DNA of 51,729 nt. Source: Bdellovibrionales bacterium (GTDB taxonomy: Bacteria > Bdellovibrionota > Bdellovibrionia > Bdellovibrionales > JAGQZY01). The notes beneath the pieces are model-generated. The model did no database searches, was not told the DNA's origin, and worked only from the letters and a program-made list of their open reading frames with translations. A program made the position numbers and the translations under genes. The stretch spans positions 1 through 51,729 of the forward strand of contig JANPLN010000069.1 of assembly GCA_031426555.1 (NCBI GenBank), read 5' to 3'. Shown here piece after piece: positions 6,657 to 20,205 of this stretch. How positions within the stretch are numbered: position 1 is the stretch's first letter; each line of letters opens with the position of its first letter.

Positions 6657-6834
6657 TTTTTTGTACGTTCTCCAACCCACCATACCTAAGTAAGTATGCA
6701 AAAAATCTACCAAAAAAGCGTTTTCTTTTGAGAGGCGACATTCCCTATAGAGGCGATCAGGTGGGCTTCTCAATATAAGACGTCAACCGAGACGACAGTG
6801 ACCAAAAAATAGCAAAAAAGCGTGGAAAGCCTTT

Positions 6835-6990
6835 GACGGGACTCTATCGAGTTGTTTTTTTGGTGGGAGCCGGACTCACGGCTTAAGAAGTTTTGGCAGA
6901 TTAAAGAAAAACACTAAGACGGCTTTTTCCTGCAAGAGCACCTCGGTTCCGGGGTTTGAGTCCACCCCGTCCTTAGTGAGGTGCTCTTGT
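6835..6990. ncRNA. Putative structured RNA element of unknown class
   Basis: 12-bp stem 6933-6944/6978-6989, inner 6-bp stem 6950-6955/6964-6969, second hairpin 6868-6883 whose loop gactca is complementary to loop tgagtc; strand undetermined. Confidence 0.45.
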
Positions 6991-7089
6991 GATTCATAGA
7001 TATATCAAGGTGGTATCCATAATAGAAATTCATTCTTTTTATCTCGGCGATAAGCATGTCTTATATATGAAAAACCAAGGAAATCGGCT

Positions 7090-7692
7090 CTAGAAGCTGT
7101 TTTTAAGCCACCCAGTGACCGAAAAACGCTCGCGATTTGTAAAATTCACTTTATGGTAAATCCCACCACTCAAAAACACGACGAGGCGTCCAAAGTGCGG
7201 CAAAATACGCAAGGCTTCCTGGCTTGAATCCCTCTCCTCAAACAGCACAAGTTCGCCCCCATCGTTGGGTGCCCAATTCTTATTCAAATAGAGCACGAAC
7301 GAAATCTGTCGTGAGGAGTTTTTTTTAAACACGTCGATATGCTTTTCGTAATGCGCCAGGGGAGGATAAAAAGCATAGTGAACTTCGTACTGACTGAGTC
7401 CTAACAAAAGCTCGGGTCGAAGTTTTTGCAAAAATAAATCAAGCCAATCTGCAAATTTTTTTTCCTCGGGGGCGATTTTTGTGAAGTCCATCCAACGAAT
7501 AAAATCACCGCGAATTTCCTTTTGAATTTGCGTTTCAACGCCCTGTCCAATCTGGGCTTTTTTAAATTCGCTCAATTGTTTGTGGTTAAGGAGCTGAGAG
7601 AGTAAGTCATCACAAACATCGGCGGGCACCAGACTATCGCTCACATGCCAGCCCTTTTCTTTTAAATCCTGTACCAGCGGTTTTAAATCCAT
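7090..7692 (-). CDS. 2OG-Fe(II) oxygenase, prolyl-hydroxylase (SM-20/EGLN)-like
   Basis: IRGDFIRW, YEKHID (HxD), LYLNKNW..DGGEL, distal His and R.S.TGW; start set at ATG 7692. Confidence 0.85.
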   Translation of the reverse strand: MDLKPLVQDLKEKGWHVSDSLVPADVCDDLLSQLLNHKQLSEFKKAQIGQGVETQIQKEIRGDFIRWMDFTKIAPEEKKFADWLDLFLQKLRPELLLGLSQYEVHYAFYPPLAHYEKHIDVFKKNSSRQISFVLYLNKNWAPNDGGELVLFEERDSSQEALRILPHFGRLVVFLSGGIYHKVNFTNRERFSVTGWLKNSF

Positions 7693-7754: not shown

Positions 7755-9092
7755 ATGGATAAAGAAAACACAAACCCAGCCACCCCAGACGACTCTCAAC
7801 CAGACGAGATTCAACCGGACGACATTCAACCGGACGACATTCAACCGGCAGACATTCAATCAGCAGACATTCAAAAAGAATTGCAAGATTTGGTGCAAAA
7901 AAAATTCGGCGGAATGGTGCAAGTGGTTTCCATGGAAACACTTCCCACTCCGGATAAAGAAATCGAGTCCACCACGCCTCCTCCTAAAAAATATAATTTC
8001 GAGTTTAACTATACTCCAAAACAAATCGTTGAGGAGTTGGATCAAACCATTATTGGGCAGCTGGAGGCCAAAAAAGCATTGGCGCTGGCTGTGTGCGATC
8101 ATTACCGCCATATCCACGCCGAGCAAGAGGGCGACCTGATGGGGCATTATCAAAAACAGAATGTTCTTTTGTTGGGGCCCACAGGAGTCGGTAAGACGTT
8201 TCTTGTTCGCTCCATTGCAAAAATGATTGGTGTGTCGTTTGTAAAAGCCGATGCCACACGCTTTAGCGAAGTGGGCTATATGGGCGCCAACGTGGATGAT
8301 ATCATTCGCGATCTTGTTCAGCAGGCCAAGGGCGATTTGCGCCTCGCCGAAAATGGAATTGTGTACGTGGACGAAGTGGATAAAATCGCTTCCAGTCCTG
8401 GTCGAATGGGTCGGGATGTGAGTGGGCGAGGAGTTCAATTTGGCTTTTTGCGTTTGCTCGAAGACGCGGATGTGGACATCAATAGCTCCCACGACATCGC
8501 TTCGCAGTTTAGAACTTTTATGAACTTTCAAAAAAAAGGCGGGCTCCAAAAAGAAGTTGTGCGAACTAAAAATATTCTTTTTATTTTTAGCGGAGCTTTT
8601 CCAGAACTTGTCCCAATTATCAAAAAACGTCTATCCGACTCGCAGATCGGTATTAACACCAAAGTGCGTGGGGCAGCCTCCGAGGATTCGTCGGCCTTTC
8701 TTCCGCAAGTCCTAAGTGAAGATCTGGTACAGTTTGGTTTTGAGCAAGAGTTTATCGGGCGCTTGCCAGTGGTCACGTCTTGCTCGTCGCTCACTGTGGA
8801 AGAACTTTTTAAAATTCTTAAGGAATCTCAAGCTTCCATCATCCATCAGTACATTCGCAGTTTTCGTCATTACGGAATCACCCTTAAATTTTCTGATGCG
8901 GCCCTTCGACTGATTGCTGCGCAAGCGCAAAAACAAAATACCGGGGCTCGGGCCTTAGTGAAAGTTTGCGAAAGCCTCCTCCGTGATTTTAAGTACGAGC
9001 TTCCCGAGTCGAACTTTCAGTCCACTCTCGAGGTCACTCCCGAAATGGTTGCAAATCCGAAAGGTTTTTTGCAATACATCCTGGGGTACTGA
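7755..9092 (+). CDS. ClpX-like AAA+ unfoldase lacking the N-terminal zinc-binding domain
   Basis: [12 protein letters not shown] pore loop, [30 protein letters not shown]. Confidence 0.88.
7785..7874 (+). repeat. 6 x 15-bp in-frame tandem repeat (PDDIQ-like pentapeptide)
   Basis: ccagacgactctcaa / ccagacgagattcaa / ccggacgacattcaa x2 / ccggcagacattcaa / tcagcagacattcaa. Confidence 0.95.
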
Positions 9093-11485: not shown

Positions 11486-14400
11486 TTATCTCATTACTTG
11501 ATCATTAGGTCCACAACCTCGAACTCCTCCGCCGCCACCTGGATACTTAGGAACTTTCTTAAAGGTCGGAGGGGAATCTACTGGCGGTGGGCGGTCAATT
11601 GGATTTGTCCTAGGCGGACGAGGAAGAGCAGGTGGCTCTAACCCTGGCGGCAGGCGGGGAGTGAAACGTGGAAAAGGATACAAATTCAACTCCGGCACAG
11701 GTGCGGGATTGTATGGGGCCTGCGGCCCTCCATCTGGAGAGTAACCCGTTGAGTCCACCAAATTGACAGGATCTTGCATGACATACCCATATAGATTCAT
11801 ATCAGCGCCATTAAATAAAATAGGATCTTTGGTCATCCATCTCCCGATGATTCCATTGTATTCACGGGCTCCGAATCTGACAAGTTTTGTATCAGAATCA
11901 TACAGACCACCGGCGAAGCCGAAGGGTTGGAAGCCAGGGTTTGAGTCTGAAAGTACGTTTCCGTAGGTTGAATAAGTCAGTTGCTGTGCAATCACACCGT
12001 TTGCGGAATTCACAACAGCCAGCACGCTTCCAAGGTTGTCTTTCACAAGCTTGTATTTAATCCCTCCACGGATCATATAATCAGGAGCATTAACAGATTG
12101 GGCGTAAATGAATTCGCTCACAAGTTGTCCTGCGCCATTGTACTCAGCCGCGATGCGAAGATCGTCCTGCCATAGGAATTGCTTCACTAAACTGCCGTTA
12201 ACTTTTTTACCAACCCGTCGGTTAAACGCATCAAATATGTAAGTGATTTGCGAGCCATTGGGTAACGTGACGGATTTGAGATGGCCAAACACGTTGTAGG
12301 TAAAGTTGGTGCTGCCAGCGGGGAGGTTGGCGCTATCGGTGATATTGATCAGCTCGCCGTTGAGGTTGTGCGTAAACTGTAAACTTCCCCAGGTAAGAAT
12401 TTGGTCTTTGGAGGCGTAGGTGGCGTTGATGGCGCTACCGTTTTCGGTGACTTGGGTGCGGTTGCTGTTGGAATCAAAAACTTGGCTGAGGACAGCGACG
12501 CCGTTTTTTTGCACAGAGGTGAGGCGGCCTGCGGTGTCGTAGATGTAGTTAAGGGTATATTGAGGAGTGCCTTCGAGGGTCTCGAGTTTTTGTGAAATGC
12601 GCCCGAGCCTGTCGCGAGTGAATTTGTAGTCTTGGTAAATACGGGAGTTTTGATAGCGGTTTTTTAACACCGTAAGTTCGCCGAAGGCGCTGTAGTTTTT
12701 GTTTTCGAAGATTCGGTTTAACTGCGTGCGGATGATCCGGCCATTCGTTAGGTTTCTTGTGATATTGAGATCACCCACTTGAATCAGATCACTGTCGTTG
12801 TCGTAAACATAATTAATGCTTGTGCCGCCTTGCACGCTGCTTGTTTCGGTTTCGAAATTGTTATTGAGGGTGCGTGACCACTGAATTGTTGTGGGTGCTT
12901 GCATTTGGATGGAGGTGAGGAGCCCTGCGGTGTAGGAAAATGTTTCCTGCACGTTATCGGGGGATCTTGCGCTATCTAGTAAGTTCCAATCGGGGTTGTT
13001 GCCCATGATGTAGGACCCTTGGGGTGTTGCAATGCTGGTAAGTCGTGCGGTGGCCGTGTCGTAGTTATACTGTGCAATGGCCCCATCAGGGCGAACCATT
13101 GAGGTGATTTTGCGATCATTGTCGTAGTTCCACGTCGTGGGATTTGTTGTTAGATAACCCGATAGTAGATCAAAGTTGTTGTACGTCAGTGCCTGTGCGG
13201 GTTTACCCGGTGGAGTGACGCTGGTGAGATTGTTGTTTTTATCGTAAGTAAAAAGCGTTTGGCGCCCGTCGGGCATGGTTTGCGAGGTCATTTTTCCAGA
13301 GCGGTCGTGGGTAAAACGTGTGATTTGCCCAAGAGCATTTCGCGTGTTCGCAATATTTCCAAGGCTTGAGTATCTGTAGAGTGTGGTGCGATTGCTTTGC
13401 GACACCTGCGCCAGTCGACCTTGGCTGTCGTAGGCTAGACCTACTGGGTGATCCGTTGCAAATTGATATTGTGTTGGCCGCTCAAAACTATCAACGGTGA
13501 TTTTTGTTTGTCTGGATAGCGGCGAAGTGTAGGTGTAGTTGGACAAAGCCCCGTCGTAAACAAGCGTCGAAGATTGCGGCCCATTGATATGACTAGTGTT
13601 AACAAAGCCCTTTGTGTAGGTGGCAATATCAAAAAGGTTATCGGCTGTGTTCAACTGAACGGTTCTGTATTCTGCAGAAACATCGCTCAACTGTCCAAAG
13701 CGATATGAGGTGTCCGTTATAAAGGGGTTTTGCGTTCGGGGATCCACAGAGTAATTCGATAAATTCGCACCGCCCACATCATCTGTGCTAGCACTTAAAA
13801 ACGTAGTTTCCCAGATAAATATTAGAACTCATTTCGGTGGGCTGCATGCTGGGAATGGTTTTTTTGGTTGTTAATATACTTCTGTTTGTATCCGAAATAA
13901 TAGATGTGGTGTAATTTCTTGCGAATCCCATGGCGCTTATCGTTGTTGTCGACGTGCCATTATCCAAATTTAAGAACGACAAATCAATCGAGCTTCCCGC
14001 AGCGCTTTGGTCGTTGATCAAGCGACCAATAGAATCATAGCTAAAGGTGTTTATAACACCGCGTGGATTTTTATAGGTTCTTAAAAGATTGTTTTGATAC
14101 GTCATCAGATGTGTTTCAAAGCTTCCAAACTGAATACGCGATAGATTTCCAGCTGCATTTATTTGTAGCGTGGTGACATGCCCGTAGGGACCTGTGATGG
14201 ATGTTGGCGCATCACTCACAGGGTCTCTTTGAATCGTCGTCTGCAGTCCGTTGTAATCAACCACAGAAATCAAAGAGCCGTTGGTGTTGTAGTTGAAGGC
14301 GTATTTTGTAGTACCTTTTGTTCCGAAGAGCGTACGGAGGTGTCTCTTTGTGGAGGCTGAGAATTCATACACTTCGGAATTATCTTTCGAAAAAACGCGG

Positions 14401-14866
14401 TAGGTATCGGGGGCGACATTAAGGGTTCCAGGCGCAAAAGCGTCTGTGCCGTCGCCATAGTAAATCACTCGTTCGTTGGTGTCGTAAAAATGGTGGACAT
14501 TTAAGGTCCAACCACCGAGACCGATTTTTTTAAAATCAAGGGGCCTTAGATAAAAAAGTTGATAGGTGGATTTGGTATCAATGTTTCCGTTGGCGGGAGT
14601 ATAGATTGTGTTGGCGGAGGCAATAGTACTCCCGATAACTGCATTGCCATTTTCGTCCAAACCATCCCAGGTAAAAAGTTGCTTGGATCCGGGAATCAGT
14701 TGGCCCGCGTTATAGTTATAAGTAAATGTACGACTGTTTCCGACTCTTATGTCTAATCTGGTGTTATACTCGTTAGCTCAAAAAAACAAGTTGCCAAACT
14801 TTCCTGCGAAAAGAGGAATAGAAATGGAATAACAAAAACTGTAAAAACAGAGCGGTAGTGCTTCAT
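11486..14866 (-). pseudogene. Secreted RHS/YD-repeat (teneurin-like) protein, split into three reading frames
   Basis: Signal-peptide ORF 14753-14866 with GAGGT RBS; second frame open 14777-13788 (FTWDGLDENG, LGGWTLNVHHFYD); third frame open 13828-11486 with YD repeats and RHS core (PFGFAGGLYD, FGAREY, GRWMTKDP, DPVNLVDSTG). Confidence 0.8.
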
Positions 14867-17547: not shown

Positions 17548-20205
17548 CTATTTCGCATTTTGATCCATTTTTAAGGCTCTATCCACGATTTCAAACACAT
17601 TCTTCGATAAGCCGGGATGTTGATGAACACGCTGTATGTGTTTCTTCGCAAGAGTCTTCAATTCTGGATGCCACTGCGTCCACTCATTAAAGCACGTTGC
17701 AATTCGTGCCGCTACCTGCGGGTTGCGCTGATCCACATCCAAAATCTGATCTGCCGCAAAGGTGTAACCGGCTCCATCTATACGATGAAAGCGCAGCGGG
17801 TTTAAAGATATCATCGAAAAGATGAGAGAAAATATTTTATTCGGATTGGACTTATCATAAGCCGGGTGTGATAGAAGAGCTTGCACATTTTCGAGCGCGT
17901 CGTCACGCCATGAGAGAGCCTGTGCCATAAACCATTTGTTCATCACCAGGGAGTCGTGCTTCCACTTTTGCTGAAAATTTTCAAACAACCCGTCCGATTT
18001 TTTGTGAGTGGCCACCATCAGCACATTCATCACATCCGTCATCGTGGGCGCTTGCTGAAAGGCTGTGTTTAAAAAATCAAGATGTTGAGAGTCCTGACCC
18101 CAGGTCCGATAAAATAAAAGCACGGATTCTAGCGAACGGACGTCGGCGGCGCGCTGGGGGTGGGTTGTTTTTTGTATTTGGCAAAATTGCCACGCCGTTT
18201 GTAATTCCGTCGACAGGTTTTTTTGCACGCACGCAAAGAAAAACCAATAGGCCTTTTCGATGGCGTTGGGTTTTTCGCCCGGGCACAGCTGCATAAAGTA
18301 ACCCACACTGGGAGGAGTTAAAAGCTTGGCAACAAAGGCTGGATCTTCGTGCTCCAAATTCACTAACGCCTGCTGCATGGCTGCCATTAGTGCCAAATCT
18401 TCGTTCAACGTTTTGTTGGCATTCACATCCGTCAGCAAACTACGTAAAAAGTGCGTGTAAAGTTTTTGCGCCGCCTCGAAACGATTGAAGGAATCTGAAT
18501 CCTTCGCCATTAAAAAGAGCAGCACGTCTTTTGTGGGTTCAGACGTCGCATCGTAGTTAAGTTTGACCGGAGCTGAAAACTCTCTCAGCAGCGACAGCAC
18601 GGGTTTTTCGCTAACATGCGCAAATAAAAACTCGTTCTCTTCGGCGTCCACAGTTAAAACACCTTTTGTGGATTCCTCGCCCTTGACCAAATTCAACGCG
18701 AGCGGCTTTCCAGTTGCGGAGAAAGCTGCATACTTTAACGGGATCACATAGGGCTTGTTATTTTTTTGTGTCACTGGATCCACCGTTTTTTGCCAGACGG
18801 TGAGGCGCAGTTCTTTGCGATCACTGTCGTACTGTTCGCGCACGGTAAGAGTGGGAGTTCCCGCTTGATCGTACCAATTTTTAAACTGGCTGAGGTTGCG
18901 ACCGGAGGTGATTTCGTGGGCTTTAATAAAATCGTCGGTGGTCACAGCTTGTCCGTCGTAGAGCTGAAAATATTTTTTTACACCCTGGATAAAAACCTCG
19001 CGGCCCAAAAGTGTTTGCAACATGCGAATCACTTCGGCACCTTTGTCGTAAACGGTGCGAGTGTAAAAGTTGTCGATGGCCATGTACGACGACGGGCGAA
19101 TCGGGTGAGCCATGCCGCTGGCGTCTTCGGGAAATTGGCGATTTCTTAACTGAGTCACGTCTTCTATGCGTTTCACACCCCGGGAGTTCAAATCCGACGA
19201 AAACTCTTGGTCGCGAAACACCGTGAGGCCTTCTTTAAGACTCAACTGAAACCAATCCCTACAGGTCACGCGGTTTCCCGACCAATTGTGAAAATACTCG
19301 TGAGCGATGACAGTTTGGATTCCCATAAACTCTGCATCCGTTGCGGATTGCTCGTCGGCTAAAACAAATTTTGAATTAAAAATATTCAGACCTTTGTTTT
19401 CCATGGCGCCCATATTAAAATCATCCACCGCTACGATCATGTAAACGTTGAGGTCATACTCAAGTCCATAAACGTCCTCGTCCCACTTCATGGATTGTTT
19501 TAACGACTTCATGGCATGGCCACAGCGGGCTTCGTTGCCTTTGTCTGTGTAGATCTCTAAATCCACTGTGCGCCCCGAAAGCGTTGTGTAAGTGTCTTTC
19601 ACCAAACCCAAATCCCCCGCTACCAAGGCAAACAAATAGCAGGGCTTTGGAAATGGATCTTGCCAGGTCACGCGATGGCGACCGTTTGGCAAATCGCTGC
19701 TCTCAAGGCGATCGCCATTGCAAAGCAACATGGGGTATTTATTTTTATCGGCTTCGATGGTGGTTGTGTATTTGGATAAAATATCGGGACGGTCTAAAAA
19801 ATAAGTCACTCTGCGGAAACCCTGGGCCTCCATCTGTGTACAAAAAATCTTTTTCGTTTTGTAAAGACCAACAAAGGAGGTGTTGTTTTGCGGCTTGAGT
19901 TCGGTTTCGATTTCAAGTTCGAAGCGCTTCTCCGGCGGCGCCAAAAGCGTCAGCGAGTCGGCGGTGACTTCGTAGTCAGTGGTCGCGAGCGGGCGACCGT
20001 CTATTTTTAGACTTCGAAGTTTGATATTTTCGCCATCCAATTTCAGTTTTCCTGCGCTTGGTCCACCAGCGGAGCGAGTTTTCTGCACTTGCATCGTTGC
20101 AGTGACGATCGTCATCTCCTCGTCGAGTTGAAAATATAAATCAATTTGTGGAATTAAAAATGCCGGCGCTTGATAGTCTTTAAGGTAAATTGTCTGTGGT
20201 TGCAT
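17548..20205 (-). CDS. pepN: Aminopeptidase N (M1 family)
   Basis: IYLKDY start, GAMENKGLN, HEYFHNWSGNRVTCRDWFQLSLKEG. Confidence 0.97.
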   Translation of the reverse strand: MQPQTIYLKDYQAPAFLIPQIDLYFQLDEEMTIVTATMQVQKTRSAGGPSAGKLKLDGENIKLRSLKIDGRPLATTDYEVTADSLTLLAPPEKRFELEIETELKPQNNTSFVGLYKTKKIFCTQMEAQGFRRVTYFLDRPDILSKYTTTIEADKNKYPMLLCNGDRLESSDLPNGRHRVTWQDPFPKPCYLFALVAGDLGLVKDTYTTLSGRTVDLEIYTDKGNEARCGHAMKSLKQSMKWDEDVYGLEYDLNVYMIVAVDDFNMGAMENKGLNIFNSKFVLADEQSATDAEFMGIQTVIAHEYFHNWSGNRVTCRDWFQLSLKEGLTVFRDQEFSSDLNSRGVKRIEDVTQLRNRQFPEDASGMAHPIRPSSYMAIDNFYTRTVYDKGAEVIRMLQTLLGREVFIQGVKKYFQLYDGQAVTTDDFIKAHEITSGRNLSQFKNWYDQAGTPTLTVREQYDSDRKELRLTVWQKTVDPVTQKNNKPYVIPLKYAAFSATGKPLALNLVKGEESTKGVLTVDAEENEFLFAHVSEKPVLSLLREFSAPVKLNYDATSEPTKDVLLFLMAKDSDSFNRFEAAQKLYTHFLRSLLTDVNANKTLNEDLALMAAMQQALVNLEHEDPAFVAKLLTPPSVGYFMQLCPGEKPNAIEKAYWFFFACVQKNLSTELQTAWQFCQIQKTTHPQRAADVRSLESVLLFYRTWGQDSQHLDFLNTAFQQAPTMTDVMNVLMVATHKKSDGLFENFQQKWKHDSLVMNKWFMAQALSWRDDALENVQALLSHPAYDKSNPNKIFSLIFSMISLNPLRFHRIDGAGYTFAADQILDVDQRNPQVAARIATCFNEWTQWHPELKTLAKKHIQRVHQHPGLSKNVFEIVDRALKMDQNAK

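Follow-up and report, generated by a model that had tools for sequence, protein, structure and literature searches.

The intergenic stretch at positions 6835-6990 of the window (the whole 51,729-nucleotide stretch of contig JANPLN010000069.1 from a Bdellovibrionales bacterium, assembly GCA_031426555.1) contains hairpins with mutually complementary loops, and raises the question of whether it encodes a functional RNA, from which strand such an RNA would be read and how it would act. Few ncRNAs have been described for the predatory Bdellovibrionota in the portions of the literature considered here: one hit-locus RNA, and eight sRNAs from the attack phase of a single species. The initial annotation regarded the stretch as a structured ncRNA or a switchable cis-regulator, and all of the stems, loops and coordinates that it listed are indeed present. 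The present analysis reveals a conserved, single-copy and unannotated element, which likely encodes a folded non-coding RNA; its expression and its action on other molecules are predictions from the sequence.

Distribution and extent of the element

Homologues occur in one copy per genome in all 26 genomes of one family of Bdellovibrio-like bacteria. BLAST located the element in 9 of 61 genomes, a fourth genus was added via synteny with the clpX-like gene at 7764-9092 (plus strand), and a covariance model (R1) gave a single match in each of 22 of the 26 family genomes. The other four (G014, G007, G011 and G006) first appeared as weak matches of about 26 bits, which proved real on inspection; in G007 and G011 roughly 3 kb separate the element from the clpX-like gene, and in G006 the two are side by side. 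The conserved heart is the core (6826-6926) rather than the large hairpin. Core identity is 100%, 90% and 86% in G002, G005 and G004, respectively, where the clpX-like DNA is 78%, 74% and 74% identical. The conserved unit extends from 6814 to 7064 and includes a promoter block, such that the limits first assigned (6835-6990) are too narrow. On the left, conservation ends sharply at 6813-6814, in two run contigs as well.

Model R1 detected no element in 124 other genomes of the order, nor was one found in 149 genomes of the phylum. Two sets of 34 and 37 genomes from other families produced weak matches only, none of them above noise, and family f10, which appears to hold complete Bdellovibrio-like genomes, had no model match above noise. 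Of the weak matches that were inspected (13 and 11), a single one does not coincide with a long ORF, and the repeat was seen upstream of none; for the 13, the upstream window was 260 nt, which also missed the repeat of the true match L338. Since true distant homologues score only about 26 bits, absence of the element outside the family is not shown. In pattern searches of genome contigs, 17 of 60 matches are true by profile; all are labelled Bdellovibrio-related, and they overlap the genome set and are thus not independent. Two of 50 metagenome matches are true, and two matches in viral contigs were rejected as chance-like by eye. The element is also covered by contigs from four runs, of which one, flagged as probably DNA, contributes a piece of 159 nt; these contigs do not constitute evidence of expression.

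Several other identities were considered and discarded. The end of a mobile element or a REP/MITE repeat is disfavored by the single copy per genome, by the lack of a transposase among the neighbors and by the lack of any match in phage and plasmid collections. An origin of replication was dismissed, as dnaA is 186 kb away in G024. RNase P, 6S, SRP and tmRNA are all found elsewhere in the genome above cut-off, and the idea of a divergent housekeeping RNA was accordingly rejected. The Rfam scan proposed as a check yielded no Rfam 15 family at the gathering threshold on the element, in the source window and in 16 homologous loci; sub-threshold matches fell elsewhere in the loci, and no ribozyme match was located on the element. 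No published description was found in searches on structured or non-coding RNAs of Bdellovibrio or Bdellovibrionota, on clpX-linked motifs and on a LysR-small RNA regulon. Two large motif surveys (PMC11109978, PMC8632094) mention neither "Bdellovibrio" nor "clpX" in their main texts or in one supplement; the other supplement falls outside this scope and may bear on novelty.

Fold of the predicted RNA and its loop-loop contact

Read on the minus strand, the predicted ncRNA is about 178 nt long (6814-6991; about 125-400 nt in relatives), its extent being based on conservation, its start on promoter geometry and its end on a U6 tract (6814-6819) at the sharp left limit of conservation, together with a break in synteny. 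The core opens with an invariant AGCCGUC and closes with GGCU. The opening segment (6918-6926, invariant in 20 of 20 aligned sequences) includes AAAGCC, the 5' strand of a predicted core-closing helix, P1, the 3' strand of which is GGCUUU (6826-6831). Hairpins P3 (6868-6883, with the kissing loop UGAGUC) and P2 (6841-6852, ACUC/GAGU) are situated inside the core; the P2 loop is GAUA here and GAAA, GCAA or GGAA in several relatives. The linkers carry C-rich motifs of the form CCYRYC. Motif 1 (6895-6900) reads UCUGCC in the source genome and CCUAUC, CCUACC or CCUGCC in relatives. Motif 2 (6862-6867, CCCACC) is predicted to be single-stranded, with an unpaired probability of 0.96 in the source genome and 0.39-0.98 in the other close forms. 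Motif 3 (6835-6840) reads CCCGUC. The core is preceded by an accessory 5' domain (6933-6989), composed of a 12-bp closing stem, an inner stem and an apical loop, which is about 40 nt shorter in the source genome than in G002, G004 and G005, about 140-250 nt long in the distant forms and absent in G024 and G025.

The hairpins that drew attention to the locus, and the complementarity of their loops, are real. The perfect 12-bp stem (6933-6944/6978-6989) was reached in none of 150 dinucleotide shuffles of 6820-7000. It encloses the inner stem (6950-6955/6964-6969) with its loop ttgagtcc (6956-6963), which is complementary to the loop gactca (6873-6878) of the hairpin at 6868-6883. In the plus-strand MFE structure this 6-nt loop-loop match was equalled in none of 250 dinucleotide shuffles of the same segment. 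The same test on the minus strand gave an observed match of 3 nt, attained in 117 of 250 shuffles, the 5-bp hairpin being absent from that MFE structure; the hairpin does form in the minus-strand fold of 6820-7010. Folding z-scores are -2.3 for the plus strand and -3.2 for the minus strand.

Comparison among homologues provides support for the individual helices to different degrees. In P3, double changes are evident at three of the five pairs, and 90% of the cells are paired. For the three helices together, 84% of the cells are paired, compared to 79.4% in shuffles (0 of 500), in a control that ignores relatedness and in which P2 is poorly aligned; as all homologues are kin, such cell counts overstate the number of independent events. 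In the four distant forms, RNAalifold recovered the helices P1, P3 and P2 as well as a terminator, and 9 of the 34 pairs carry double changes. P1 itself exhibits no double change and has a low pairing probability in most single-sequence folds, and is thus predicted rather than shown.

The contact between P3 and the 5' domain involves the segment GACUCA (6957-6962, minus strand) of the apical loop, as defined from the pair table and the loop context. Its GAG/CUC anchor is retained in all 21 long close forms. The covariation check suggested for the loop-loop pairing revealed compensatory changes at two positions that flank the anchor: at +3, 7 of the long close forms have U-A and 12 have C-G; at -1, 17 have U-A and 1 has C-G. 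These counts keep all rows, including that of G013, which was scored with the wrong partner loop and has a 6-bp kissing match when the loop context is examined. C-G at +3 is shared by the fourth genus and the metagenome locus L124, the core of which resembles that of G010 by eye; this suggests two events. The view of the locus as a structured ncRNA with a loop-loop contact is thus backed by both conservation and compensatory changes. G024 and G025, which have no 5' domain, carry a different P3 loop, CUUCC; in the four distant forms the P3 loops are different again, and no clear partner was found for them. The kissing contact is, on this comparative evidence, real but accessory, because two short forms are devoid of the partner domain and four distant forms contain other loops. 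In the long forms, the 5' domain would probably dock onto P3 via a kissing contact of 4-7 bp, as a structural and dispensable feature.

Other details first reported for the locus are less well conserved. The alternative pairing of cactaagacgg (6912-6922) with ccgtccttagtg (6967-6978) exists in the source genome and is not maintained among relatives: a nominal p<0.05 was obtained in 1 of 25 long forms, namely the source genome (p=0.04). The additional ggactc (6839-6844), noted as also complementary to the loop, is present as described; it belongs to the stem of hairpin P2, as one of its arms, and fails to track the changes in the loop. A 27-codon minus-strand ORF beginning at 6997 can also be read, with its ATG upstream of the predicted start site. 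It is not shared among relatives, and in G003, which is 98% identical, a stop occurs after six codons.

Promoter, strand, neighboring genes and regulator

The promoter block (6999-7064) stays with the element even where other genes separate it from the clpX-like gene. It comprises three inverted repeats: IR1 (7050-7064), a LysR-type ATAAG-N5-CTTAT repeat centered at 7057 (about -66); IR2 (7028-7042), a weak repeat centered at 7035 (about -44) that abuts a poor -35 region; and IR3 (7019-7033), ATAA-N7-TCAT, centered at 7026 (about -35), which overlaps both IR2 and the -35 region and is degraded in the four most distant genomes. These are followed on the minus strand by an extended -10-like element, TG-A-TATATC (6999-7007; -13 to -8), and a predicted start at about 6991. 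The -10-like element lies at a fixed distance from the first helix in both long and short forms, and its variant in G025, TGCTATAAAAT, also precedes the tmRNA of the source genome; a generic promoter scan did not flag it. The IR1+IR2 pattern was detected at the locus in 19 of 21 family genomes, in 3 of 240 others and in none of the control. A Fur/PerR-like reading of the block fits some genomes by eye and the source genus poorly. The IR centers are spaced by steps of 22 and 9 bp. The oxyR-oxyS operator has its centers at -66, -44 and -35, and that of cynR-cynT at -66, -44 and -34 (ATAA-n7-TTAT), according to the portion of the source used here (PMC5002191). The minus-strand start was placed at about 6991 because the steps are the same as in oxyR-oxyS, and the start site itself thus derives from operator geometry.

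Further indications of strand come from the homologues. Within P3, the wobbles as read on the minus strand comprise eight G-U and no A-C, at two positions. Intrinsic terminators, consisting of a hairpin and a U tail, follow P1 directly on the minus strand in G014 and, by eye, in G007, G011 and G006; in the source genus there is a U6 tract without a clear terminator hairpin. RNAalifold gave a similar SCI on both strands and hence no strand separation, and a few terminal positions and one hairpin in G013 fit the plus strand better by eye. Taken as a whole, the promoter geometry, wobbles and terminators indicate that the element is very likely an independent minus-strand RNA gene, running from about 6991 to 6814.

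The structure might instead act on the plus strand, for example as a long leader of the clpX-like gene, or as DNA only. The constant linkage to the clpX-like gene, the purine-rich nature of the conserved motifs on the plus strand and the similar RNAalifold scores of the two strands would all be in keeping with such a role. We consider it unlikely, as no conserved sequence able to hold a plus-strand promoter exists to the left of 6813, other genes (up to about 3 kb) intervene between the element and the clpX-like gene, and the promoter geometry and terminators point to the minus strand; the distance from dnaA in G024 and the single copy also argue against an origin or a REP-like repeat.

The clpX-like gene (7764-9092) encodes an AAA+ protein that scores below the ClpX equivalog cut-off. 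It is a constant divergent neighbor of the element, serving as a synteny anchor rather than as part of the RNA, which faces away from it wherever the two are assembled together. The gene is found at E<=1e-100 in 30 of 121 genomes of the order and is followed by a degP/htrA-like protease gene; the start of its protein (window 7790-7870) consists of low-complexity QP(D/A)DI repeats that vary in number among genus mates. A 2OG-Fe(II) oxygenase gene (7090-7686, minus strand, approximate start) is inserted between the promoter block and the clpX-like gene in two genera only.

The left neighbor is a different gene in nearly every genome. It points towards the element in three of eight relatives' loci, and is convergent also in G014, G007 and G011. 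This variation in identity and orientation, which is seen among close relatives, is inconsistent with the earlier placement of the element in the leader of the DUF1592/DUF1552 operon and, together with the lack of conservation of the alternative pairing, with a switchable cis-regulator. In this regard, a cis-acting leader (riboswitch or attenuator) of the left gene has very little probability. The left gene does lie on the same strand as the predicted RNA in the source genome and in five of eight relatives' loci, and read-through would be possible in the close genus, in which the U tract has no clear terminator hairpin. The left genes are, however, mutually unrelated and convergent in the three of eight loci and the three distant genomes named above, the element is not consistently located 5' of functionally related same-strand genes, the alternative pairing is significant in a single form of the 25, and the terminators come after P1 with no conserved anti-terminator. 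Further along the window, at 11486-14660, two adjacent minus-strand ORFs contain YD/RHS-like repeats by eye and are apparently one gene in pieces.

As a stand-alone minus-strand gene, the RNA would be controlled by a LysR-type protein, for which the product of G000:C24:14755-15669 is the probable candidate. This regulator would bind IR1+IR3 without inducer and slide to IR1+IR2 to activate. G024 (100% complete) possesses a single LysR gene, which is orthologous to the C24 gene, and retains the promoter block. The C24 gene (L193, L280) is present in 99 of 101 genomes of the order, and a sequence ATA[AG]-N7-[CT]TAT, mostly ATAAG-N5-CTTAT, occurs within 200 nt upstream of 24 of its 28 orthologues examined (genome rate, 0.007 per 200 nt). 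IR1 is one of four perfect boxes in the source genome and has the best flanking register, by a score derived from the element itself. Genome-wide, the perfect ATAAG-N5-CTTAT is found at chance frequency (similar to the control) and other LysR genes carry the same box; the oxyR operator of the family is also similar, ATAG-N7-CTAT-N6-ATAG, with a middle spacer of 6 rather than 7 bp. The regulator was consequently assigned mainly by elimination in G024. The LysR genes lie on other contigs, such that the regulator gene is not a divergent neighbor of the element. The C24 protein met no curated family cut-off and has no solved relative at E 1e-25.

OxyR is disfavored as the regulator, since an OxyR-like query had no match in G024 or G018, both of which keep the block. 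In G000, an OxyR-like gene (C30:128802-129752; L200, L201-L224) is divergent from ahpC-ahpD. Additional LysR-type boxes were observed in this connection. A second box is positioned about 100 bp upstream of IR1 in G014, G011 and G007 (L338, L355 and L356) and about 90 bp upstream in G006. In a genome of another family, an ATAAG-N5-CTTAT box (L315, G067:C1:2220804), accompanied in similar register by another ATAA element, may be a target of the same regulator; the gene downstream of it looks like a class I fumarate hydratase. The RNA described here is a first candidate target for the LysR protein of these 99 of 101 genomes.

A second candidate sRNA was noted on the minus strand of G000:C32 at about 18590-18770 (L326, L327), between convergent merC-like and acetyl-CoA synthetase genes. 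Its ATAAG-N5-CTTAT box is accompanied by additional elements in the same register, by a (C/U)GGGGA repeat present four to five times and by a hairpin resembling a terminator. Four of five genus mates conserve it; Rfam offers no match, and a role as a CsrA sponge is possible. Separately, L322:1703-1766 (G019) contains a Guanidine-III riboswitch above cut-off, which precedes a small ORF resembling a membrane transporter.

Possible modes of action and comparison with known systems

The mode of action to which we give tentative preference, at somewhat below an even chance, is that the LysR-activated (predicted) minus-strand RNA represses or stabilizes mRNAs in trans and independently of Hfq, through base pairing between its exposed C-rich motifs and G-rich ribosome-binding regions. 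There is close to an even chance that the two to three CCYRYC motifs are the pairing seeds. Most forms harbor two to three CCYRYC motifs per core, and G024 has one within the counted stretch; individual cores are only modestly enriched in them, with p ranging from <0.004 to 0.45. Motif 2 is altered to CCCAAG, CCUAAG or CCCAAA in the four distant forms. Hfq was not found in any of five genomes. Among 2756 crude gene starts scanned for duplexes, no target stood out, the best value for the motif-2 seed being -21.0 kcal/mol compared to best values of -18.0 to -26.5 for shuffled seeds. Pairing of the RNA with the second candidate RNA (C32) is no better than in shuffles (-58.6 versus a mean of -63.1). 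To our knowledge, a kissing-loop architecture is unusual among pairing sRNAs, which counts against this mechanism. The logic of C-rich seeds has been described for RoxS, RsaE and FsrA in the part of the source consulted (PMC4409812).

Alternatively, the same gene and promoter may produce a scaffold or sponge for a protein, which would bind a "hairpin then CCYRYC" module and the invariant AGCCGUC/GGC junction in the style of CsrB and CsrA. Such a function, which we regard as rather unlikely, would account for the repeated motifs beside hairpins, for a P1 junction that is invariant rather than covarying, and for a tertiary contact and a 5' domain that is freely enlarged or lost; the failure to find an mRNA target and the presence of CsrA in five of five genomes are also in its favor. 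In G007, G011 and G014, which have the three largest forms, the P3 loop reads CAnGGAnG and resembles a CsrA site. Against a scaffold, P3 has no GGA loop in the other 23 genomes, no gene for an RNA-binding protein is linked to the locus and no candidate CCYRYC-binding protein was identified.

The core could also represent a small-molecule aptamer without an expression platform, pre-organized by the kissing contact, similar to merRNA. In its conserved junction nucleotides and loop-loop contact, the element is similar to riboswitch aptamers. The order provides a precedent in merRNA of Bdellovibrio bacteriovorus, described as a stand-alone c-di-GMP riboswitch RNA (PMC3627812). We consider an aptamer quite improbable nevertheless, as there is no match to an Rfam aptamer, the c-di-GMP-I RNA of the source genome is located elsewhere, the conserved residues are pyrimidine-rich on the predicted strand and the kissing contact is dispensable. 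A direct link of the element to merRNA or c-di-GMP-I was rejected, as the c-di-GMP-I RNA is on another contig and the LysR box found at a comparable position in G067 is that of a different LysR gene. Behind the c-di-GMP-I RNA at G000:C72:21270-21362 (L059) there is a terminator-like hairpin, and its strand carries no long ORF downstream; this RNA is possibly merRNA-like.

A broader proposal would place the element in a new class of modular, tertiary-folded RNA, in which a kissing loop docks a plug-in 5' domain onto an invariant junction core and which would serve as a scaffold for proteins or a sponge for ligands instead of as an ordinary sRNA. The principal output of a LysR regulator common to nearly all Bdellovibrionales would then be this RNA and the second, G-rich one that shares its operator. 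We put this forward as a speculative possibility, on the unlikely side. Whichever mode of action applies, the RNA is kept in all 26 family genomes with a core far more conserved than the adjoining protein-coding DNA, and its predicted start, end, operator and regulator make it directly testable. The short form without a docking domain, the long forms with covarying kissing loops and the distant forms with other loops constitute a natural series, and may serve as a model for the way in which RNA domains join a conserved core.

Among known systems, CsrB/RsmZ-type sponges carry multiple GGA motifs in their loops. Like them, the element displays repeated short motifs beside hairpins in genomes that encode CsrA; unlike them, it has no repeated GGA loops on the predicted strand, with the exception of one such loop in three distant genomes. 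The merRNA and other attack-phase sRNAs of B. bacteriovorus are likewise structured, stand-alone ncRNAs from the order, with lengths of 100-450 nt as given in the part of the source considered (PMC3627812). Compared by description, they differ from the element, which has no c-di-GMP-I aptamer and a LysR-type instead of a FliA-type promoter. As in RoxS/RsaE, FsrA and CsfG of Bacillus and Staphylococcus, the element is predicted to combine several single-stranded C-rich motifs with control by a transcription factor and little role for Hfq, as far as the portion of the source used here describes them (PMC4409812). Its motif, in contrast, is CCYRYC rather than runs of CCCC; it belongs to a different phylum, has neither an Rfam match nor a target that stands out, and adopts a multi-domain fold with a kissing contact. 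In operator layout, the element resembles the LysR-activated sRNA genes of E. coli, OxyS (and GcvB): the centers of its three repeats are separated by 22 and 9 bp and its predicted start lies some 35 bp beyond IR3, matching the values given for oxyR-oxyS and cynR-cynT (PMC5002191). The element differs from OxyS in that its regulator gene is not a divergent neighbor, the likely regulator is not OxyR, no sequence match exists, Hfq was not found, and a tertiary kissing contact and an accessory domain are present. The predicted RNA would thus work like a LysR-activated sRNA gene, yet is in no known family.
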